NCBI GenBank assembly: GCA_000934665.2
Contig: KZ538909.1
Location: forward strand, 1 to 40,882
DNA length: 40,882 nt
Direction: 5' to 3'
Origin: Catajapyx aquilonaris
Taxonomy: Eukaryota
Shown: positions 4,746 through 30,949 of the stretch, piece after piece
Numbering within the stretch: the stretch's first letter is position 1
Layout of the letters: every line of letters begins with the position of its first letter
The notes under the pieces: generated by a model
Database searches by the model: none
What the model saw: only the letters and a program-made list of their open reading frames with translations
What the model was told of the DNA's origin: nothing
Translations under genes and position numbers: made by a program

Positions 4746-4794
4746 TATGCCTAAAAACATGCAAATCACCTACAGAAGTAAGAGACCACTTTAC

Positions 4795-5493
4795 CTTTTG
4801 GTGCCTCTATCGCAGTGTAAGTTGCCCCAGGTGGCACAGGGTACCCTTGGGTGAAAAGCTTGAAGTGGTGGATCAGTGCCTCCATGGAGGTTTTCATCTC
4901 ACCCCTCCTTGGGGGAACGATCTTGCAATCATCAGTCCGAACTTCCCCAGGTGGCATCTTGTTGAGGCATTGGTCAATGATTCTAAGAGACTCACGCATC
5001 TCCTCCATCCGGCATAGATACCGGTCGTAGCAGTCACCCTTGGTACCAATTGGTACATCAAACTCAAAGTCCTCATATCCATCATATGGCTGGGACTTGC
5101 GAAGATCCCACTTGATTCCAGAACCTCGCAGCATCACCCCACTAAAACCCCAGTTGAGGGCATCTTCTGCGCTGACAATACCAATGTCCACAGTGCGCTC
5201 CTTCCAGATGCGGTTAGTAGTCAGAAGGTCTTCTACTTCATCCAAGCGCTCTCCAAATTTCGAAGCAAATTCATATATATCATCCAACAGCCCCAAGGGT
5301 AGGTCCTGTGCAACACCTCCAGGTCGGACATAGGCAGCATGCATGCGAGCACCAGATACCCTCTCATAAAATTCCATCATCTTCTCACGCTCTTCAAAGA
5401 GCCAGAAGAATGGGGTAAGGGCACCAATATCCAAGGCATGTGTGCCTATTGCCATGATGTGATTCAGAAGGCGGGTGATCTCCGAAAACAACA
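4795..5493 (-). CDS. NDUFS2: NDUFS2 coding exon 4
   Basis: [12 protein letters not shown]...[19 protein letters not shown]...EAPK; 699 nt, phase 1 to phase 1. Confidence 0.97.
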
Positions 5494-6159
5494 CTAGGGG
5501 CATAAAGATTTCTCATTACTTCAGTGGCTCTTTGGGATGTAAATATTAAGAATATGGTATGTTGCATGGGCATCCTAAATGTACTCTACGCTGATTTGGA
5601 ATGAACAATGTCAATAATGATACTCCATAGTACTTTCTAATGTTGCTCACATCACTCAATTGCGTGAAGGGAACATGACGTCACATTATTGTCACCACTA
5701 ATTCAGCAAATTTATACATGCTTGTTGGCAGAACAAGATGAGGTCACAATCTGCAGTTTCCCTAGGAATATTTAAATTACACAGGTGGCCATACAAATGT
5801 TAAAATTTAACAAGAACTAGCCTTGGAAAGTTTTGCACTACAAGATTTTTAAAAACTTGGGGTGGAATTTCGTCCATTTCCTTAGCAGTGACTTATCAGC
5901 ATTGCTGCTTAGCAGCTGATAAGCACCTGCTAGCTTACTACTTAAATTGAATTTTTGTCACACTGATATCCGCTTCTTGTAAGCAGATGCGAAAAACCCA
6001 GGTAGGTGGGAGGGGCTTGTTGATGCCTGCGCAGTGTTAGGAAGAGATTTGGCAACCTCAGGATGTATCAGGGAGCGGGAAGATTTCAAAGATGGCGACC
6101 ACGCAAAGTGATGCAAAGATTCCGAGGATGAATAAAGTAATAAGCACTGGGGACGATTA

Positions 6160-6608
6160 TACAGGGTGGACCAACTTCAAGTGTCGTTTTATAATGGCTA
6201 TTAATAGAAGGGCTTTACGATTGACGTCGCAGCGACGTGTAAAATGGCCCACTTCGGCGCCATGGAAAATATTAGCTGGCAATAGCAGCACACATGTAAT
6301 GAACCCTGTTCAACTACATGCGGCACCAATGCCAATTCGGCAGTCCTTAAAGAAGGCTGCCTCGCCCACGCAATATGCGGTGTAAAATGGCGTCACCCAT
6401 TTCACCCAGGCGCATCTCAGGTCATGTGTGCACCTACGTTTTTCCAGGTCAACCCAGCAGCAGGGTTGATTACACGTGAGCTGCTATTGGCAGCTAATAT
6501 TTTCGATGGCGCCAAAGTGGGGCATTTTACACGTCGCTGCTACGTCATCGAAAATCACTGCTATTAATCGCCGTTATAAAACGACACTTGAAGTTGGTCC
6601 ACCCTGTA
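6160..6608. mobile_element. Tc1/mariner-type MITE
   Basis: TA flanks; TIR CAGGGTGGACCAACTTCAAGTGTCGTTTTATAA; arms continue internally. Confidence 0.88.
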
Positions 6609-6624
6609 TGTACGGTGGACAGGT

Positions 6625-6910
6625 GCATAGCTGGGACGGATTCATACCAGGTACGGGTGTTTACAGCGAACGGTATGTACCAGGTACGGGTGTGTACCGG
6701 ATATGGGTGCATACCGAGTCCGGGTGTGTACAGCAGGTATGCAGCGAACGGTATGTATCAGATATGGGTGCGAACGGAGTATGGGTGTGTACAGCAAACA
6801 GGTATGTATACAGGGTACGGGTATGTACCAAAGATGGGTTCATACCGGGTACGGATGTGTACGGGTGCGCACCGGAAACAGGTACGTACGGCGGACAAAT
6901 GTACATCGGG
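6625..6910. repeat. Degenerate minisatellite, about 17-18-bp unit
   Basis: Recurrent cgggtgtgtacc/aggta-like units; explains the overlapping low-complexity ORFs. Confidence 0.7.
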
Positions 6911-7072
6911 TCTTTGGATGATTTATTTGTTACAGAACCAACCACTGCACCACCTATGCATTTAATATCAGGATGTAGCCCAGCGATGAACATCCCAGGC
7001 TCCGGTAAATTAAGGTTTTTTTCTCACATTAGATGTGTTTCCTGCCTTAGCAGTAATTTAGAGTCCTTCTAG

Positions 7073-7458
7073 TTAGGGGTCGTCCATATACCACGTGACC
7101 GATTTTTGGCCACTTTTTGACACCCCCCCCCCCCTCCCCCCAGTGACCGACCGTGGTATCCATTGGACCCCCCCCCCTCCCCCCATTTTTCACGTGGTTT
7201 TTTAAAATGTCAATGTATTCAGAAAAAACGCAATCGAAATTGATAGCTCCTCAACTAAACTGTTTAAGCACGTAAAAAACATGTCTCCCCATGTTTTCGG
7301 GGTCACTGATTTCGAATTTTAGGTTATTTTGAACCCATGTGCATCTGCAAAAGCCCCCATATGTGCCAATTCACTGTGTTCAGAGATACAACGTGAATTT
7401 TCGCCGAACCCCCCCCCCTCCCCCCAAAACGGTCACGTGGTATATGGATGACCCCTTA
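7073..7458. mobile_element. PIF/Harbinger-type MITE
   Basis: TTA TSD; TIR GGGGTCGTCCATATACCACGTGACCG. Confidence 0.85.
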
Positions 7459-7895
7459 GCAGTAAGTGTGCTTAGCAGTGAGATGGAAATTCCACGCCCC
7501 TGATAATTGTGGGTGGAGCATCTTAGAAGTGGCTGACAGCAGCTATTACTTGTATTGCCTTAATAGCAAGACAAAAATTTGACCCTTGCTATAACTTGAA
7601 TCTTCCACAAGTCAAAACATGTTTCTGGTACCTTGGAGATTCGAGACAAGTTCCACTGTATATAAACCTGAAAATGGTGTTATTTTGTAACAAAAAACGC
7701 CAGCAGATTTTTTTAAATGCTGATGTGCGAGAATCATCTGCCATTCTTATTAATGTTAATGTTCATCTGAGATGTGATTTTGATTTTTGTGAGCAAAAAT
7801 CCCATGTATAACCATGTATAAAAAGTAACAGTACTTGAATAAAAATGACATCAGATGCTGGGAAAAAACTCAGCAGTTACTGATCCATTGCTCAC

Positions 7896-8097
7896 CTCGA
7901 ATGTACTTGGCCCTCTTGGGTATGTCAATGTTGAGAAGCTTCTCCACAGCGAGGGAGAAGCACTGCTCATTGCACATCATGGACACGTAGTCAAGGCGAT
8001 CGAAGTAAGGAAGTGCCTGGGTGTAGGTCTTGTATTCAATCAACTTCTCTGTGCCTCGGTGCAGCAGACCAATGTGTGGGTCGGCCCTCACCACCAC
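7896..8097 (-). CDS. NDUFS2: NDUFS2 coding exon 3
   Basis: [41 protein letters not shown]...; AG acceptor and GTGAG donor in phase. Confidence 0.97.
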
Positions 8098-8155
8098 CTA
8101 ATGAACTCTCATCAATAGGAATCCTTGCGGGGGGAAAATAATTCATGTCACTTAC

Positions 8156-8381
8156 TTCACCATCCAGCTCAAGTACCAGACGAAGCACACCATGAGCGGC
8201 AGGATGCTGTGGCCCAAAGTTGAGTGTGATGTTCCTGACTTGCTTCTCAACTGGGGCTAGCTTGGAGTTCCATGGAGGAAGCTTCCACTTGGAAGTCACT
8301 TCATCTGGATACATCACAGGGCCATCAAACTGCTGTAGGAACTGCGGGTCTGGGTACCATCTTTTGGCACCCCGCTCCTGA
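8156..8381 (-). CDS. NDUFS2: NDUFS2 coding exon 2
   Basis: tttcag acceptor; [11 protein letters not shown]...[22 protein letters not shown] (hallmark motif); GTAAGT donor. Confidence 0.95.
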
Positions 8382-8496
8382 CTGAAACACACCAGCAACC
8401 TCATGTTATGGCAAAGATATGCATGATTTCCAATGATGAGGTTAAGGAACAAAAAATGTTACTTGCATGCACAAATAATGTGAAGGACAGGTGATG

Positions 8497-10274: not shown

Positions 10275-11766
10275 TACAGGGTGTATCAGAGTCACGGGTC
10301 AAGCGCACGCGAGGGGGTGGGGAAAAATCGTAGGTGGTGATAACCCCGGTCGGTTTTATAAAACAATTAGAAATAAGGGAGTAATCAATTTTTGATTACG
10401 GCGTGACATCACGTGCTTTCCGTTCGAATTGAGAGGCGCGGAAAGGCTAGTACGGTGCGTACAGCGGCTCTCGAGCCGTGCCGGTTGCACTGAACAAGGT
10501 CCTCTCATGCTCTCCCGCCTTCCCACGCAAAGCATGGGACCAGGCTTGGACCTCGGCAACCCCTCTTCACGACCTGCCCATGCAACGGTGCACTGGGAAA
10601 TGGCTGAGGATGTCGAGCACCGATGTCTCTGTACAAATGTACAGGCAGGAATGACAGTACGCATACCATGTAGACATCATCCTCATCAAAAAATCGCGAA
10701 TAATGTTTCTTGCGGTGGACAGACAGCTGCGTGAGGCTGGTACATTGCGAGGCAGGCGAGATACGTCAGGTACGTACAGTTAGTACAGATTGTTGAACAC
10801 CTGTACTGTAGTACAGCACTGCACTGGCTGGATAATGCCTGTGTACGGTACTGTACGGTACTGTAACAGTACTGTATCGCACAATGCACCTTGTACCGCA
10901 CGTACCATGGCAATGGAGGAAGACGTTCTGGACCATAGACCCATCGATCAGCACCCGTGAAGTCGGGCGTAGAGTGCACAGCATTCATTCCAATGTGTGA
11001 AGGATCATCCATGACAGCATCAGAGCAAATGGCTCCCAGTTCCAGCATTTGCTGTAGTCACGGTATGCGTACTGACAGTACGCATACCGACTTCACGGGG
11101 TACTGATCGATGGGTCCATGGCTACCATGTCCAGAACGTCTTCCTCCATTGCCATGGTACGTGCTCTCCGAGGTGCATTGTGCGATACAGTACTGTACAC
11201 AGGCATTATCCAGCCAGTGCAGTGCTGTACTACAGTACAGGTGTACAACAATCTGTACTAACTGTACGTACCTGATGTATCTTGCCTGCCTCGCAATGTA
11301 CCGGCCTCATGCAGCCGTCTGTCCACCGCAAGAAACATTATTTGCGATTTTTCGATGAGGATGACGTCTACATGGTATGCGTACTGTCATTCCTGCCTGT
11401 ACACTTGTACAGAGACATCGGTGCTTGACATCCTCCACCATTTCCCGGTGTACCGTTGCTTGGGCAGGTCGCGAAGAGGGGTTGCCGAGGCCCAAGCACA
11501 GCCCCATTCTTTGCGTGGGAAGGCGGGAGAGCATGAAAGCGCCTCATTCAGTGCAACATGCACAGCTAGAGAGCCGCTGTACGCACTGTACTCGTCTTTC
11601 CACGGCTCTCAATTCGAATGGAAAGGATGTGACGTCATGCCGTAATCAAAAATCGATTACTCCCTTATTTCTAATTGTTTTATAAAACCAACCGGGGTTA
11701 TCGCCACCTACAATTTTTCCCCACCCCCTCGCATGCACTTGACCCGTGATTCTGATACACCCTGTA
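10275..11766. mobile_element. 1.5-kb fold-back element with CAGGGTG termini
   Basis: TA flanks; about 690-bp inverted arms (10277-10965 and 11087-11764); mirrored ORFs in the track. Confidence 0.9.
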
Positions 11767-20435: not shown

Positions 20436-21055
20436 TTTAAAACTCCATGGATAATAATACATAATAAACGTATTAAAAGGACGACAATGACGCACAGGTG
20501 TCGCCGCGGATAATCCTTAAATGGCCCTAGATACCGTAAAACGAGCTATTAGAGGTTTTTAATGTACACAGTACTACTGCAACATACAGTAGGGTAGTTT
20601 AATCAAAATAATGTAAAATATTACCGTAGATTTTCAGTTTTTCTCCTAGAAACAGTCTGTTAAATGTTTCTTCGTTTACAAGACAATTGACATTTTTTCG
20701 GACTTTAATTTTTAATCCTATTTTTAGGCGACGCACGGATAATCCGCACCCAGATAATGTGGAGTACAGCGTATTGTACTGTACCTACTCCACAAAAACC
20801 CGAAAGAGTGCGTAAACTATATAAAAAAAATAATAAGAAAATAAATAAATACCCATTTCACTTGAACTGGAGCTTAGGTATTAGTATGCCTACATGTCGC
20901 ACCTGCTTGACGCAAATGAGAAAGAGAGAAAAAAAAGTACCCACATGGGATTCGAAACCGGATTCATCACAACGGATGGCATGGCATGGCGCGGGAGCGG
21001 GACAAAACTAAACAGAAAAAACGAATAGGTAAAATAAATAAAAAAATAAAAAAGA

Positions 21056-21191
21056 TAGTGCGAGACGGATTCGAACCGCCGACTTGAGATGGCCCCCCAC
21101 CTGCCCTGCTTCGGGCGCTACAGTTAGCGCTCTTGCCGGGATAAATTGGGGGATAAAGGCCTCACGCTCTAACCAACTGAGCTATCGCACT
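21056..21191 (-). tRNA. Atypical intron-containing tRNA-like gene (anticodon register TTT, 63-nt intron at 21091-21153)
   Basis: Stems AGTGCGA/TCGCACT, GCTC/GAGC, TGAGG/TCTCA, GGCGG/CCGTC; A box TAGCTCAGTTGG; B box GGTTCGAATCC; T6 run 2 nt after the 3' end; TATAAA at 21224-21229. Confidence 0.7.
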
Positions 21192-21470
21192 ACCGTCCTG
21201 TGGGGCCTCTCCTTTTGAGGTGCTTTATACCCAATACNAGGCGATTCTGTTTCGTTCTGTTTGCAAGTATGGCGGCTCCACGTGGTGAGCCCTGCTGGTC
21301 GCCTCTTTCGCCCCTTCTCTGCCTTGCCCCGGGGCAGGAAGTTGTTGGAGGAGTGAGGCCTCCATCGCATCGGCCCCCATCCGTGCCCCTCCAGTCAGGC
21401 CCATCTCCTCCACAAGCACGGGGGAGTATAAGAAGATTATCGTCTCCGGACCACTTGTTTTTTTGTTTGT

Positions 21471-24645: not shown

Positions 24646-24726
24646 TTAACCATCCTGCTTCTCTTTATATGTAACAGTCCCTCTCTGAATCATCTCAGGA
24701 ATCTCTACTGCTAGCCATGGCCCCAA
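24646..24726 (-). CDS. UFC1: UFC1 exon 4 (last)
   Basis: tttcag|[35 protein letters not shown] (minus) at 24624-24629; spliced total 167 aa. Confidence 0.95.
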   Translation of the reverse strand: [26 protein letters not shown]

Positions 24727-24788
24727 CTGAAATAAAAATAATTTACATGATAAGTTTTAATGCAAACAATAAAGGTAAGTTTAACATA

Positions 24789-26210
24789 TACGAGGTAGGC
24801 GCCAAAAGTTTCCTGCCTGACAATGTTCCAGGGGTGATAGAAATAAAACAACTATAGTGTCAGTTAGTCCCAACTATGAGCGGAGGATGTACTATCGGAC
24901 GCAAAAAGAATGTCCGGGGAGAGTCTTCGTTCAGCCTGGTGGAGGCAAACCATTGCACAGATGTGTACACACACACTTGTGTGTACGTCCGTGCTTATCT
25001 GCTGAGCTTTTTCCCTCCTCCCTTAGCTACCCAGGTGCAATGGTTTGCCTCCACCAGGCTGAACGAAGACTCTCCCCGGACATTCTTTTTGCGTGCCTAT
25101 GTACCAGTTTCACCCGGAAACATCAGTCGGTCTCTTAGAAAAGTCAACTTTAGTCAGACGAGTTGCAACATGGTGAAAATCGATTATCGAGAGTGATCAA
25201 GTTCCTCACCAAGGAAGGCCTTACTCCCATGTCTACTAAACAGGGCTTGGATGGTGTGTATGGTGAAGCTTCCTCTTCATATTCCACAATGAAGAAATGG
25301 GCTAAGCAGTTTCGTTTGGGCTGAGAGAGCATCGAAGGCGAGCTATGCGACTTTCAGCCCAGACCGTCTCTCTTGTGGAAAAGTAGCTGCTGCAAGCAGG
25401 CCCTTGGATGTGGAGGAACTCTTAGCAAGGTTGGGGCTTTCAGACACCACCTTTCCTCTCATTCTTCATGAACACCTTCACATGAAAAAGGTCAGCACAA
25501 GATGGGTGCCCCGACTTCTGTCAGCATTTCAAAAGCAAAAATGCGTAACATGTCGCGAAACGTTTTCCGACCTTCGCCGTGGCAAACGGAAGTACTGAGG
25601 TCCATCGACACAGGAGATGAAACTATGGTCCTGTGCTATGATCCTCTATCAATAAGAGAATTAATGGAATGGAGTAGGGCGAGCAGAAAGCGGCCGAGTA
25701 ACACGGTCAACCAAGAAGACCATAGTGACGATTCTTACTGATAGACTTCAAGGATTAAAACACGATTGTCTACGGGGAGTCCTACTCTGGCCTGCTGCAC
25801 AGGTTTCGTGATGCCATGAAGAGGAGATGTGGGAAGCTGAGTTGGGGTGTTCGCCAACTTCAGGATAATGCACCAGGTTACAGGACAATGTTTCCAAGGC
25901 TGCTGTGAGGAACTGTGGCTTCGAGGAGCTTGATCACCCACCCTACTGGTCCCTAATGACTATTACCTGTTATCCAAACTCAAAAAAGAACTTCAAGGTA
26001 CGATTAAAAGGTGATGAAGAGTTGCAAGAGACAGTATATGAGCATTTTGTAGAGAAAACTTTGGACTATTTTTCCAGAGGTATTGAAATGATAATTATGA
26101 GATATGAGCATTGATGTACAAGGAGACTATATTGAAAAATGGCACTGTCGTTTTATTTCCATCACCCCTGGAACATAGCCAGGCCGGAAACTTTTGGCGC
26201 CTACCTTGTA
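24789..26210 (+). mobile_element. Full-length decayed mariner transposon in UFC1 intron 3
   Basis: TA flanks; about 60-bp TIRs (CGAGGTAGGCGCCAAAAGTTTCC...); frameshifted transposase from ATG 25170 with WVPRLL, TGDET, QDNAP and HPPY motifs. Confidence 0.92.
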
Positions 26211-26334
26211 TGAAGTATTAATAAGCAGGAACCACCAAAACTAGGTCTGGCTGTTTTAAATGACCAAACCTAGATCTGGCCGTTTTTTTCCGTCCAATGG
26301 CCATTTTCAGGGTTTGAGCCTAACATGTCCATTT

Positions 26335-26970
26335 TACCGTATTACCTCACTTAAAGCGGCATGCCGGTGTAGTCGAGGTCAACCAGTTTTTAGAAATTCG
26401 CGATCTGGTGGCTATACCGGCATGCCAGTCTAAGACAGGTATGCCAGTATAAGGCGAGGTTTTCTTACGATCTCTATGAAAATTATTATTACTCAAAGGA
26501 ATGCATTACACCATGTTCTACAGTACAGACACAGCCCAGGACACTTCTATCGCCTGTCACATCCCATAAGATCGTTCATTGAGATCAAATTTTACGGCAA
26601 CGAGATCTGCGATCAGCGAACTATTGATAGCAAAATGAAGGACTGAAGGAATTTGACTTGATCCTTTGCAGAGCCTTTGTAATGTTTAGGGAGGTTCCCG
26701 TCTCAGAGCAGGCTGACAGTCGGATTGGTCACACTCTATGACCTGCGAAAAAGATGAACTTGCATATTCTCACAGCCCTGTACTTGCACATTTTTCCCCG
26801 TAACATTATTTTAGTACAGCATCAGATGCATTCCAAAAAATTTAACAAGGATCAAAATTATGGAAATCTACCTCCGGTATTACGGCATGCCGGCCACCCC
26901 CGGGTGATGCCGGCATGCTGGTCGACCTCGTTTTATACCGGCATGCCGCTTTAAGTGAGGTAATACGATA
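26335..26970. mobile_element. MITE with CCGTA termini
   Basis: TA flanks; TIR CGTATTACCTCACTTAAAGCGGCATGCCGGT; ccggcatgcc subterminal repeats. Confidence 0.82.
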
Positions 26971-27509
26971 AATGTACACTGTACTCCCAATTATCCAGGT
27001 ACGGATTATCCGTGTTGCAGATAATAAGGTTTCCCTGACTTGTCTTGGAGGACTCTGCCCCAGGGCTGGCCAACTTAGGGAATACCACCCCTATTTGATA
27101 TGAAAATACATAATTACAGTTTGATTCAAACTTACACAGGTGCAATTGCACACTGTTTGTGGTAGGCTGTGACATAAAGGACCACAACAAACAACGTTAC
27201 GATAGTATACCATAGTATGAAATATATTAAGGTGGGTGTTTCTTGAAACGACTATCCTTGGCCACTTAACCCCACCTTCAGCATTACTGTTAGCCTGATT
27301 CAAGTTTAACTCAATCATGGAGGATCTGTTTTGTACTTGTGCTGTGAGACAAACAGGTGTAACCAGGACCAGACAGACTTAGAACTGACTCTCACCAAGA
27401 ATATGTCATGTTTCTTTTCTCGCTGCCCTCTGTGTGGCTGCCACCAATCCAAGCCACCACAACCCCTCCCAAAATGAGAAACAAAAATTATCTTATACCA
27501 GTAACTTAC

Positions 27510-27677
27510 CCCCAATGCCATAGCATGGGCTATGCCAAATTTTCCAACATTTCTACCCCACAGAGGCTTGAAATGGTCCGTGAGGCAAATTTTCCCCCCT
27601 CTGTACATCTTGGCTGTTTTTCCATCTAATTCAGGTAGTGCTATTTCTGGTGCTGTAGTTGGATAAGTCACTGGAAT
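27510..27677 (-). CDS. UFC1: UFC1 exon 3 (catalytic Cys)
   Basis: [56 protein letters not shown]. Confidence 0.97.
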
Positions 27678-29994: not shown

Positions 29995-30949
29995 CGAGGG
30001 CTGTTCAATAAAGACTGGCACTGATTTTTTTTCCATGGCTATTACGTAAACTATTGAACAAATAAGGTGCGTGCACAATGATCTGTCGAATACGAGTTGG
30101 CACCCACATCGACACAGTGATATCTTGAATTGTCCTCCAGAGAGGGCAGCATTACTGACCCCCCTCTCGCAAATCGCCTCCGGCAATCACGGCAGCCATC
30201 AGGGACGAGCAGTACGCGGCGCTGAAATTCTGCTTCCGCTTGAAGAAGACTGCTACGGAAGCATATCATTTGTTGCAAGCAGCACATGGAGATTATGCCA
30301 TTCCCCGTCGATCCAGAAAGCAAACAGCAAAGCACAGTGTGGAAGTCTGTACGAACTCTCCAACACCGAAAAAAGCAAAGGTGCAGGCGAGTGCAGGGAA
30401 AATGATGGTGATAGGGTCTAGCGGTTTTTGACATTCGTGGAATGGTATACCAACATGTTGTTTCTCCGCATACCACCATTACTGGTGCCTATTATGTGTC
30501 TGTGCTGAGGGCCTTCTTGAAAAACCGCTATCACCATCACTTTCCCTGCACTCGCCTGCACCTTTGCTTTTTTCGGTGTTGGAGAGTTCGTATAGACTTC
30601 CACACTGTGCTTTGCTGTATGCTTTCTGGATCGAAGGGGAATGGCATAATGTCCATATGCTTCTTGCAAGAAATGATATGCTTCCGTAGCAGTGTTCTTC
30701 AAGCGGAAGCAGAATTTCAGCGCCGCGTACTGCTCGTCCCTGATGGCTGCCATGATTGCCGGAGGCGATTTGCGAGAGGGGGGTCAGTAATGCTGCCCTC
30801 TCTGGAGGACAATTCAAGATATCACTGTGTCGATGTGGGTGCCAACTCGTATTTGACAGATCATTGTGCACGCACCCTATTTGTTCAATAGTTTACGTAA
30901 TAGCCATGGAAAAAAAATCAGTGCCAGTCTTTATCGAACCGCCCTCGTA
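29993..30949. mobile_element. Palindromic mariner-derived element (two inverted 5' ends)
   Basis: TA-CGAGGG termini; about 420-bp arms encoding MAAIRDEQYAALKFCFRLK..TATEAYH.LQ.AYG; spacer carries FFDIRGMVYQH..TTITGAYY transposase remnant. Confidence 0.92.

Follow-up and report, generated by a model that had tools for sequence, protein, structure and literature searches.

Is the tRNA-like stretch at positions 21191-21056 on the minus strand of contig KZ538909.1 of Catajapyx aquilonaris (assembly GCA_000934665.2) a genuine gene, and if so, what kind of tRNA would it encode? The question was raised by a sequence-only reading, which described this stretch as a stand-alone tRNA-like Pol III gene with a structured 63-nt intron and a non-standard identity. 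Below, the window denotes the whole stretch of DNA that was analysed (40,882 nucleotides, positions 1 to 40,882), and all coordinates refer to it.

Results

Architecture of the tRNA-Type Gene

We found that the minus strand from 21191 to 21056 reads exactly as it had been transcribed earlier. When compared with Rfam, this stretch matched the tRNA model RF00005 over its entire length (model positions 1-71 of 71) and scored 51.3 bits, where the gathering score is 29, at E 2.8e-8; the numbering of exons and intron was derived from this alignment. Exon 1 (21154..21191, minus strand; 38 nt including an extra D-loop base) comprises the 5′ strand of the acceptor stem, the D arm with the A-box-like motif TAGCTCAGTTGG (21184-21173), the 5′ strand of the anticodon stem and the loop bases 32-37, CCUUUA, of which bases 34-36 at 21155..21157 form the anticodon. 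It is followed by an intron of 63 nt (21091..21153, minus strand) and by exon 2 (21056..21090, minus strand; 35 nt), which provides A38, the 3′ strand of the anticodon stem, a 4-nt variable loop, the T arm with the B-box-like motif GGTTCGAATCC (21077-21067), the acceptor stem's 3′ strand and the discriminator A73. The gene thus has a single intron between bases 37 and 38, with borders at 21154/21153 and 21091/21090; both the insert placement by RF00005 and the reading of the borders confirmed the 37/38 position that had been proposed.

All 21 of the 21 stem pairs form, with G31.U39 and G50.U64 as the G-U pairs, so that the earlier description of four paired stems with two G-U pairs holds. When the exons were joined in silico, the minimum-energy fold of the resulting 73-nt RNA was a perfect cloverleaf (−23.0 kcal/mol). 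The conserved tRNA core is therefore evident both from the full-length match to the model and from the spliced fold.

Among the 26 Rfam matches at E ≤ 10 in the whole window, there was no second tRNA-like match. ARAGORN at default settings did not find the gene at 21191-21056. With introns allowed, it proposed a Phe-GAA gene in which the intron would measure 42 nt and the extra arm would be long, a model that we rejected as implausible, and seven further calls at a lowered threshold were rejected as having no Rfam support. An exact search with the 35 nt of exon 2 gave 0 matches in metagenome, prokaryote-genome (one genome per species) and viral contigs, exact matching being unable to detect diverged orthologues.

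Transcription Signals

The motifs typical of Pol III genes, that is, internal boxes, a T-run terminator and an upstream TATA, were all read directly in the sequence; the internal boxes were judged by eye against the usual consensus, hence the names A-box-like and B-box-like. A TATAAA on the minus strand (21224..21229) lies at −38..−33 relative to the mature 5′ end, and at the window's own density the chance that a TATAAA starts in a given 16-nt span is about 0.007. On the other side, a terminator-like T6 (21053-21048) begins 3 nt past the discriminator A73 and is followed by a T7 (21046-21040), both on the minus strand within 21040..21053; the chance of a run of at least six T starting within 10 nt is about 0.0095 by the same measure. 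The TATAAA 33-38 nt upstream and the T6 almost directly after the tRNA, both noted in the sequence-only reading, were thereby confirmed, each having a chance of less than 1%. Together with the RF00005 match, these signals support the description of the locus as a probable stand-alone tRNA-type Pol III unit. We conclude that the locus is a real tRNA-type gene with its own promoter, its own terminator and a correctly placed 63-base intron.

Several other motifs lie near the gene. About 100 nt downstream, a B-box-like GGTTTCGAATCC (20959-20948, minus strand) is followed by a T8 (20936-20929). The stretch 20929-20959, which gave no tRNA match in Rfam, may be what is left of another tRNA-like unit. 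Inside or beside this B-box-like motif are two polymorphic flank sites, 20957 and 20967. A 16-nt imperfect inverted repeat (21002-21017/21245-21260, 88% complementary) brackets the tRNA unit including the TATA and the terminator, and a second one (21152-21178/21340-21366) is short and imperfect; both are probably due to chance.

Genomic Setting

The window has 43.6% G+C and contains four open reading frames of at least 150 aa in 40.9 kb. Exon-sized pieces of Complex1_49kDa (NDUFS2-type), UFC1 and formin FH2 domain genes were found in it on the same strand as the tRNA-type gene. Since the last coding exon of UFC1 ends at about 24,650, the tRNA gene lies about 3.4 kb past the UFC1 stop codon, and the NDUFS2-type exons are located downstream of it. 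Most likely, then, the gene resides in intergenic DNA with UFC1 and the NDUFS2-type exons on either side.

The NDUFS2-type gene (4766-8458, minus strand) and UFC1 (24650-27677, minus strand) are same-strand neighbours with the tRNA gene in between; in the human genome, too, NDUFS2 and UFC1 lie close to each other and near a cluster of tRNA genes. The translations show a run of unknown residues around 1600-1900, and the window has 64 N in total, one of which (21238) is 9 nt upstream of the TATAAA. Inverted pairs of similar ORF-like segments occur at 10356-10676 (minus) and 11365-11685 (plus), and at 30050-30421 (plus) and 30479-30892 (minus), which suggests foldback or transposon-derived palindromes.

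An archaeal or contaminant origin was brought up by the TATA box and by a motif similar to the bulge-helix-bulge of archaea, as a conserved 4-bp helix between bases 32-35 and the intron can be drawn with 3-nt bulges at both cuts. We rejected this origin because, unlike in the archaeal case, the locus is situated between intron-containing animal genes on one contig, and the exact search for exon 2 in one genome per prokaryotic species gave no match.

Copy Number

Five sequencing runs from two studies contain the stretch, each recorded as DNA or with its kind unrecorded and none as RNA, and contigs of four of them were aligned with it at a likeness of at least 80%. The alignment covered 20700-21237 only, the upstream flank past 21237 being left out owing to the N. 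In run X1, the contigs over the gene add up to a depth of about 100-280, whereas a repeat at 20736-20753 reaches about 10,000. Contigs run unbroken from each exon into its flank (20992-21090 and 21156-21232). As a second copy with the same exons elsewhere would split such contigs, none is visible. A flanking direct repeat around the gene was looked for and not found. The gene is single- or low-copy and does not form the head of any dispersed repeat.

Around the repeat, the whole segment 20718-20775 has a depth near 10,000 against about 100 in its surroundings and has many different continuations on both sides, as a very high-copy repeat would.

Many copies, an unrelated body with a tail, and a target-site duplication, by which a tRNA-derived SINE is recognised, are all missing at the locus. 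The earlier statement that there is neither a SINE body nor a target-site duplication was thus borne out by the terminator 3 nt after the tRNA, the lack of a direct repeat and the low depth.

Natural Forms of the Locus

The contigs of the four runs, which come from both studies, revealed three natural forms of the locus. Sample S1 (runs X1-X3) has two of them over the contig 21061-21185. One is identical to the window and has a depth of 62, 49 and 40 in the three runs; the other differs by 16 substitutions and 3 indels and has a depth of 32 in X3, with partial contigs at a depth of 40 in X1 and 32 in X2. Run X5, from the other study, has a single form, the third, in which 15 substitutions and 3 indels were counted, most of them common to the second form. 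The kind of sample behind X5 is not on record; its depth is even over the gene and flanks (about 4.5-5), and so it looks like DNA.

All differences near the gene fall within 21091-21155, that is, in 65 nt comprising the intron and anticodon base 36. There were 0/176 differences in exons and near flanks: the exons show 0/72 with base 36 aside (1/73 counting it), and the near flank of 105 nt is also invariant. Farther out, about 13/235 positions of the distal flank (20757-20991) are changed in the minor form of S1. Its depth there (36, 30 and 27) is in line with the depth of the second intron form, as two haplotypes at one locus would lead one to expect. Relative to the distal flank, the intron region is enriched in differences (16/65 vs. 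13/235, Fisher p 3e-5) and the exons with the near flanks are depleted (0/176, p 8e-4); taken by themselves, the exons show a marginal depletion (0/72, p 0.04). The sequence-only reading had suggested selection on the structure of the tRNA body. This was not borne out: since the near flanks are as invariant as the exons, purifying selection specific to the exons cannot be claimed from these forms. These forms could represent either alleles or duplicates of very recent origin.

How the changes came to be concentrated in the intron was also considered. Active tRNA genes show a pattern of variation pointing in the direction of the intron enrichment seen here, according to PMC6130373; transcription-associated mutagenesis as described there would by itself account for the intron, yet it does not fit inner flanks that are invariant. 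A paralogue with the same exons is an unlikely source of the diverged intron by gene conversion, as the contigs are unbranched at the exon-flank borders. In this quasi-palindromic, G+C-rich intron, the cluster of changes could have arisen by a few template-switch events and not by 16 independent mutations.

Splicing Signals and Structure of the Intron

The pairing between anticodon loop and intron was then compared across the three forms. The 3′ arm of the anticodon-intron helix (21093..21096, minus strand) is the GGGG at intron positions −3 to −6, which pairs with C32, C33, U34 and U35 (21159-21156). The four pairs (C-G, C-G, U-G, U-G) are unchanged across the forms, including the proximal pair G21093:C32 (C21159). 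The third-last G of the intron is thus able to pair with C32, as had been proposed, and this pair has an ensemble probability of 0.71. The 3-nt bulge at the 3′ cut consists of intron bases −2 and −1 and A38. The features of the locus agree with what is known for eukaryotes in general, where tRNA introns are located at position 37/38, measure up to 133 nt and have C32 or U32 paired with an antepenultimate A or G (PMC10275265). They agree equally with the fly rules: in all 16 intron-containing fly pre-tRNAs, according to PMC6614914, the proximal pair is C-G, the bulge is invariantly 3 nt long, the helix is weak and 6 nt lie between the C of the proximal pair and the exon end; over-tight helices are reported there to reduce splicing in fly reporters.

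The two intron stems named in the sequence-only reading, formed by a C-run with a G-run and by GCGCTA-ACTG-TAGCGC, are present. In the central hairpin GCGCUA-ACUG-UAGCGC (21115..21130, minus strand), the six stem pairs are invariant in the three forms, and the loop differs between forms by one substitution and one inserted base; the other stem is CCCCC(A)/(U)GGGGG. Compared with shuffled sequences, the folding energies are only modestly better, z being −1.8 for the precursor and −2.1 for a segment of 63 nt that is shifted against the intron by one base. The intron has 65% G+C against 44% in the window, and no Rfam family matched it, be it C/D-box or another class of RNA.

In the window form, the canonical, splicing-competent fold (−43.0 kcal/mol) is 8.8 kcal/mol above the minimum-energy fold (−51.8 kcal/mol), and the canonical anticodon-stem pairs have ensemble probabilities of 0.18-0.30. 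This fold is disfavoured because the GGCC end of the intron competes for G30-C33; the two other forms are without the terminal CC that competes in the window form.

The five anticodon-stem pairs are identical in the three forms. Within the bulge, intron bases −1 and −2 are CC in the window form and UG in the other two. Just inside the 5′ cut, the pair 21152:21097 is C-G in the window form and U-A in both others, a two-sided compensatory change. In the intron helix 21145-21139/21100-21106, three positions change from G-U or mismatch to Watson-Crick in both other forms, and each of these forms loses one pair, at different positions. The comparison was made pair by pair and base by base, ignoring indels in the 5′ part of the intron, and it covers three forms with one two-sided change. 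Helices that are kept together with a bulge that changes freely fit a splicing substrate.

Anticodon and Identity

With the predicted cut 6 nt after C32, the mature anticodon loop would be CCUUUAA for the window form, and for the two others CCUUAAA. Accordingly, the anticodon is UUU, reading lysine codons, in the window form and the contigs identical to it, and UUA, corresponding to the ochre stop, in the second form of S1 and the sole form of X5 (21155 A>T on the plus strand, seen in X3 and X5), base 36 being A in both. The earlier suggestion that a shifted, less well paired register would give a TTA anticodon proved unneeded, as two natural forms have TTA in the standard register.

Position 33 is C (21158) in all forms, and the near-universal U33 of elongators, which makes the U-turn, is absent. 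Initiator tRNA-Met has the anticodon CAU, three G-C pairs at 29-31:39-41 and no known intron. The gene shares with it A1:U72, A73 and a loop starting with CC and ending with AA. It differs in having an intron, an elongator-type T loop TTCGAAT, UUU or UUA as the anticodon, and A29-U41, a G-C pair and G31.U39 in place of the three G-C pairs. According to PMC8887486, C33 is carried by the initiators of multicellular organisms, Drosophila included, and is reported in no other tRNAs there; among human ANN-decoding tRNAs, it occurs in the initiator only.

The gene also falls outside the families in which animal tRNA introns have been described. Intron-containing human tRNAs belong to Tyr, Ile-UAU, Arg-UCU and Leu-CAA (PMC10275265), and the fly list of 16 intron-containing tRNA genes, as given in PMC4536317, comprises Tyr, Ile-UAU and Leu-CAA only. 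With C33, A1:U72, A73 and UUU, the gene supports the non-standard identity claimed in the sequence-only reading, and it is probably not an ordinary lysine tRNA.

The Drosophila Tyr-GUA, Leu-CAA and Ile-UAU genes nonetheless offer the closest parallel in organisation. They too have an intron at 37/38, the proximal pair is likewise C-G, the bulge measures 3 nt, the exon ends 6 nt after C32, and the helix contains weak G-U pairs; the intron length here is in the fly range, and fly introns likewise vary among copies with identical exons. In contrast to them, the present gene has UUU/UUA, C33, A1:U72 and a 4-nt variable loop, is apparently single-copy and is known from DNA alone. By eye, its body is alike to fly tRNA-Tyr at about 51/74 positions, a likeness that is not diagnostic.

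As to the two anticodons, UUU and UUA are one base apart (position 36), just as in the Lys-UUU and predicted Sup-UUA genes of animals. In zebrafish tRNA sequencing, Sup-TTA clustered with Lys-TTT (PMC11417395); in planarians, 17 Sup-TTA genes were predicted and one was detected by northern blotting (PMC7962491); and anticodon-switch alleles segregate in nematode populations (PMC13010820). Unlike in the animal Lys-UUU and Sup-UUA genes, both anticodons are found here at one apparent locus, together with an intron and C33.

Discussion

From the features, the low copy number and the pattern of variation that we observed, we infer, at about even confidence, that this is a genuine single- or low-copy Pol III gene for an atypical tRNA that would be transcribed and spliced and would do little or no standard decoding. 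TFIIIC would bind the internal A and B boxes, and TFIIIB/TBP the upstream TATAAA; the T6/T7 runs would end transcription, and RNase P and RNase Z would trim the ends. The tRNA splicing endonuclease would make one cut 6 nt past C32 and another within the 3-nt bulge beside C32:G(−3), after which RtcB would ligate the exons into a 73-nt L-shaped RNA. By analogy with other arthropods, the 63-nt intron may be circularised by RtcB as a by-product. Little or no standard decoding would be expected since U33 is missing and the anticodon varies. On this reading, the gene would be an orphan or drifting gene of the Lys-UUU/Sup-UUA type in which the signals for transcription and splicing have been kept.

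The alternative that survives best is that the gene is a silent relic or pseudogene, copied recently from an intron-containing tRNA gene that was once standard; it would still look intact while having ceased to be transcribed or used, and C33 and the anticodon change would reflect neutral decay. C33 and the polymorphic anticodon do resemble the decay of a critical loop, the exons are no more constrained than the near flanks, and the Rfam score of 51.3 bits is moderate. Nevertheless, we consider such a relic rather unlikely, as the 21 stem pairs, the A- and B-box-like motifs, the TATAAA and the T-runs are all intact, and the splice-site pairings have been kept by way of a compensatory change at a low-copy locus. 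Moreover, the distal-flank rate of 13/235 predicts about four differences in the 73 exon bases, where one was seen.

An ordinary Lys-UUU isodecoder with a lineage-specific intron appears improbable. Animal tRNA-Lys has G73, and the A73 and A1:U72 of the gene are both unlike it; the body as a whole presumably differs from animal tRNA-Lys as well. UUA in two of the three forms and the presence of C33 speak against this identity too, as does the lack of a second visible copy, major isodecoders being usually multi-copy. On the other hand, the cloverleaf is perfect, and Lys-UUU is one of the intron-containing tRNA families of budding yeast. Ten such families exist in this yeast (PMC10275265), as opposed to the fly list of Tyr, Ile-UAU and Leu-CAA only in PMC4536317. 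Furthermore, the window form has C32, U36, A37 and A38, and PMC8887486 states that t6A formation required C32 and A38 and that animal KEOPS tolerated C33.

It is still harder to see the tRNA as a scaffold whose real product is the 63-nt intron, released as a circular tricRNA having its own function. The high G+C content of the intron relative to the window would suit such a product, as would the hairpin stem and basal helix that are kept in the three forms with one compensatory change; in flies, tRNA introns are circularised, with junction reads for 13 of the 16 genes (PMC4536317). The intron is, however, the most variable part of the locus, the hairpin loop included; its folding is better than that of shuffles by only about two standard deviations, it matched no Rfam family, and the stems that are kept are those needed for splicing plus one hairpin. 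The suggestion in the sequence-only reading that a tRNA scaffold releases a functional intronic RNA is therefore weakened by the variability of the sequence (15-16 substitutions and 3 indels in 65 nt), while the preservation of the stems still speaks for it.

Equally doubtful in our estimation is that one locus segregates lysine-type UUU and ochre-suppressor UUA alleles, both on a body that is competent for splicing and has the initiator-like A1:U72 and C33, with C33 damping decoding such that a natural stop-codon suppressor or AAA mis-reader can persist. If this dual identity were true, genotype-dependent readthrough of UAA would be possible in an arthropod population.

Finally, the gene as the head of a tRNA-derived SINE or another dispersed tRNA-like repeat, for which the very high-copy repeat at 20718-20775 about 300 nt downstream and the B-box-like fragment 20959-20948 might be adduced, is scarcely credible, given a depth about 1% of that of the nearby repeat, exons continuing unbroken into unique flanks, a T-run directly after the tRNA without body or tail, no flanking direct repeat and no second tRNA-like match in the window.

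Intron-containing nuclear tRNA genes and atypical Lys-UUU/Sup-UUA predictions are already known as kinds. What we did not find described in the literature searched is their combination, namely an intron at 37/38 in a tRNA that does not belong to the usual animal families, C33 on an elongator-type body and two anticodons at one apparent locus. Should the RNA not be made, the gene merely joins the atypical tRNA predictions that gene finders turn up in most animal genomes. Should it be made and spliced, it would represent an arthropod intron-containing tRNA family beyond Tyr, Ile-UAU and Leu-CAA, as well as a natural case of C33 on an elongator-shaped tRNA. The invariant exons and flanks around a diverged intron amount to a natural experiment on what the splicing machinery needs, and the occurrence of UUU and UUA at one locus would make it possible to study directly how anticodon switches and potential suppressors of stop codons are tolerated by animals.
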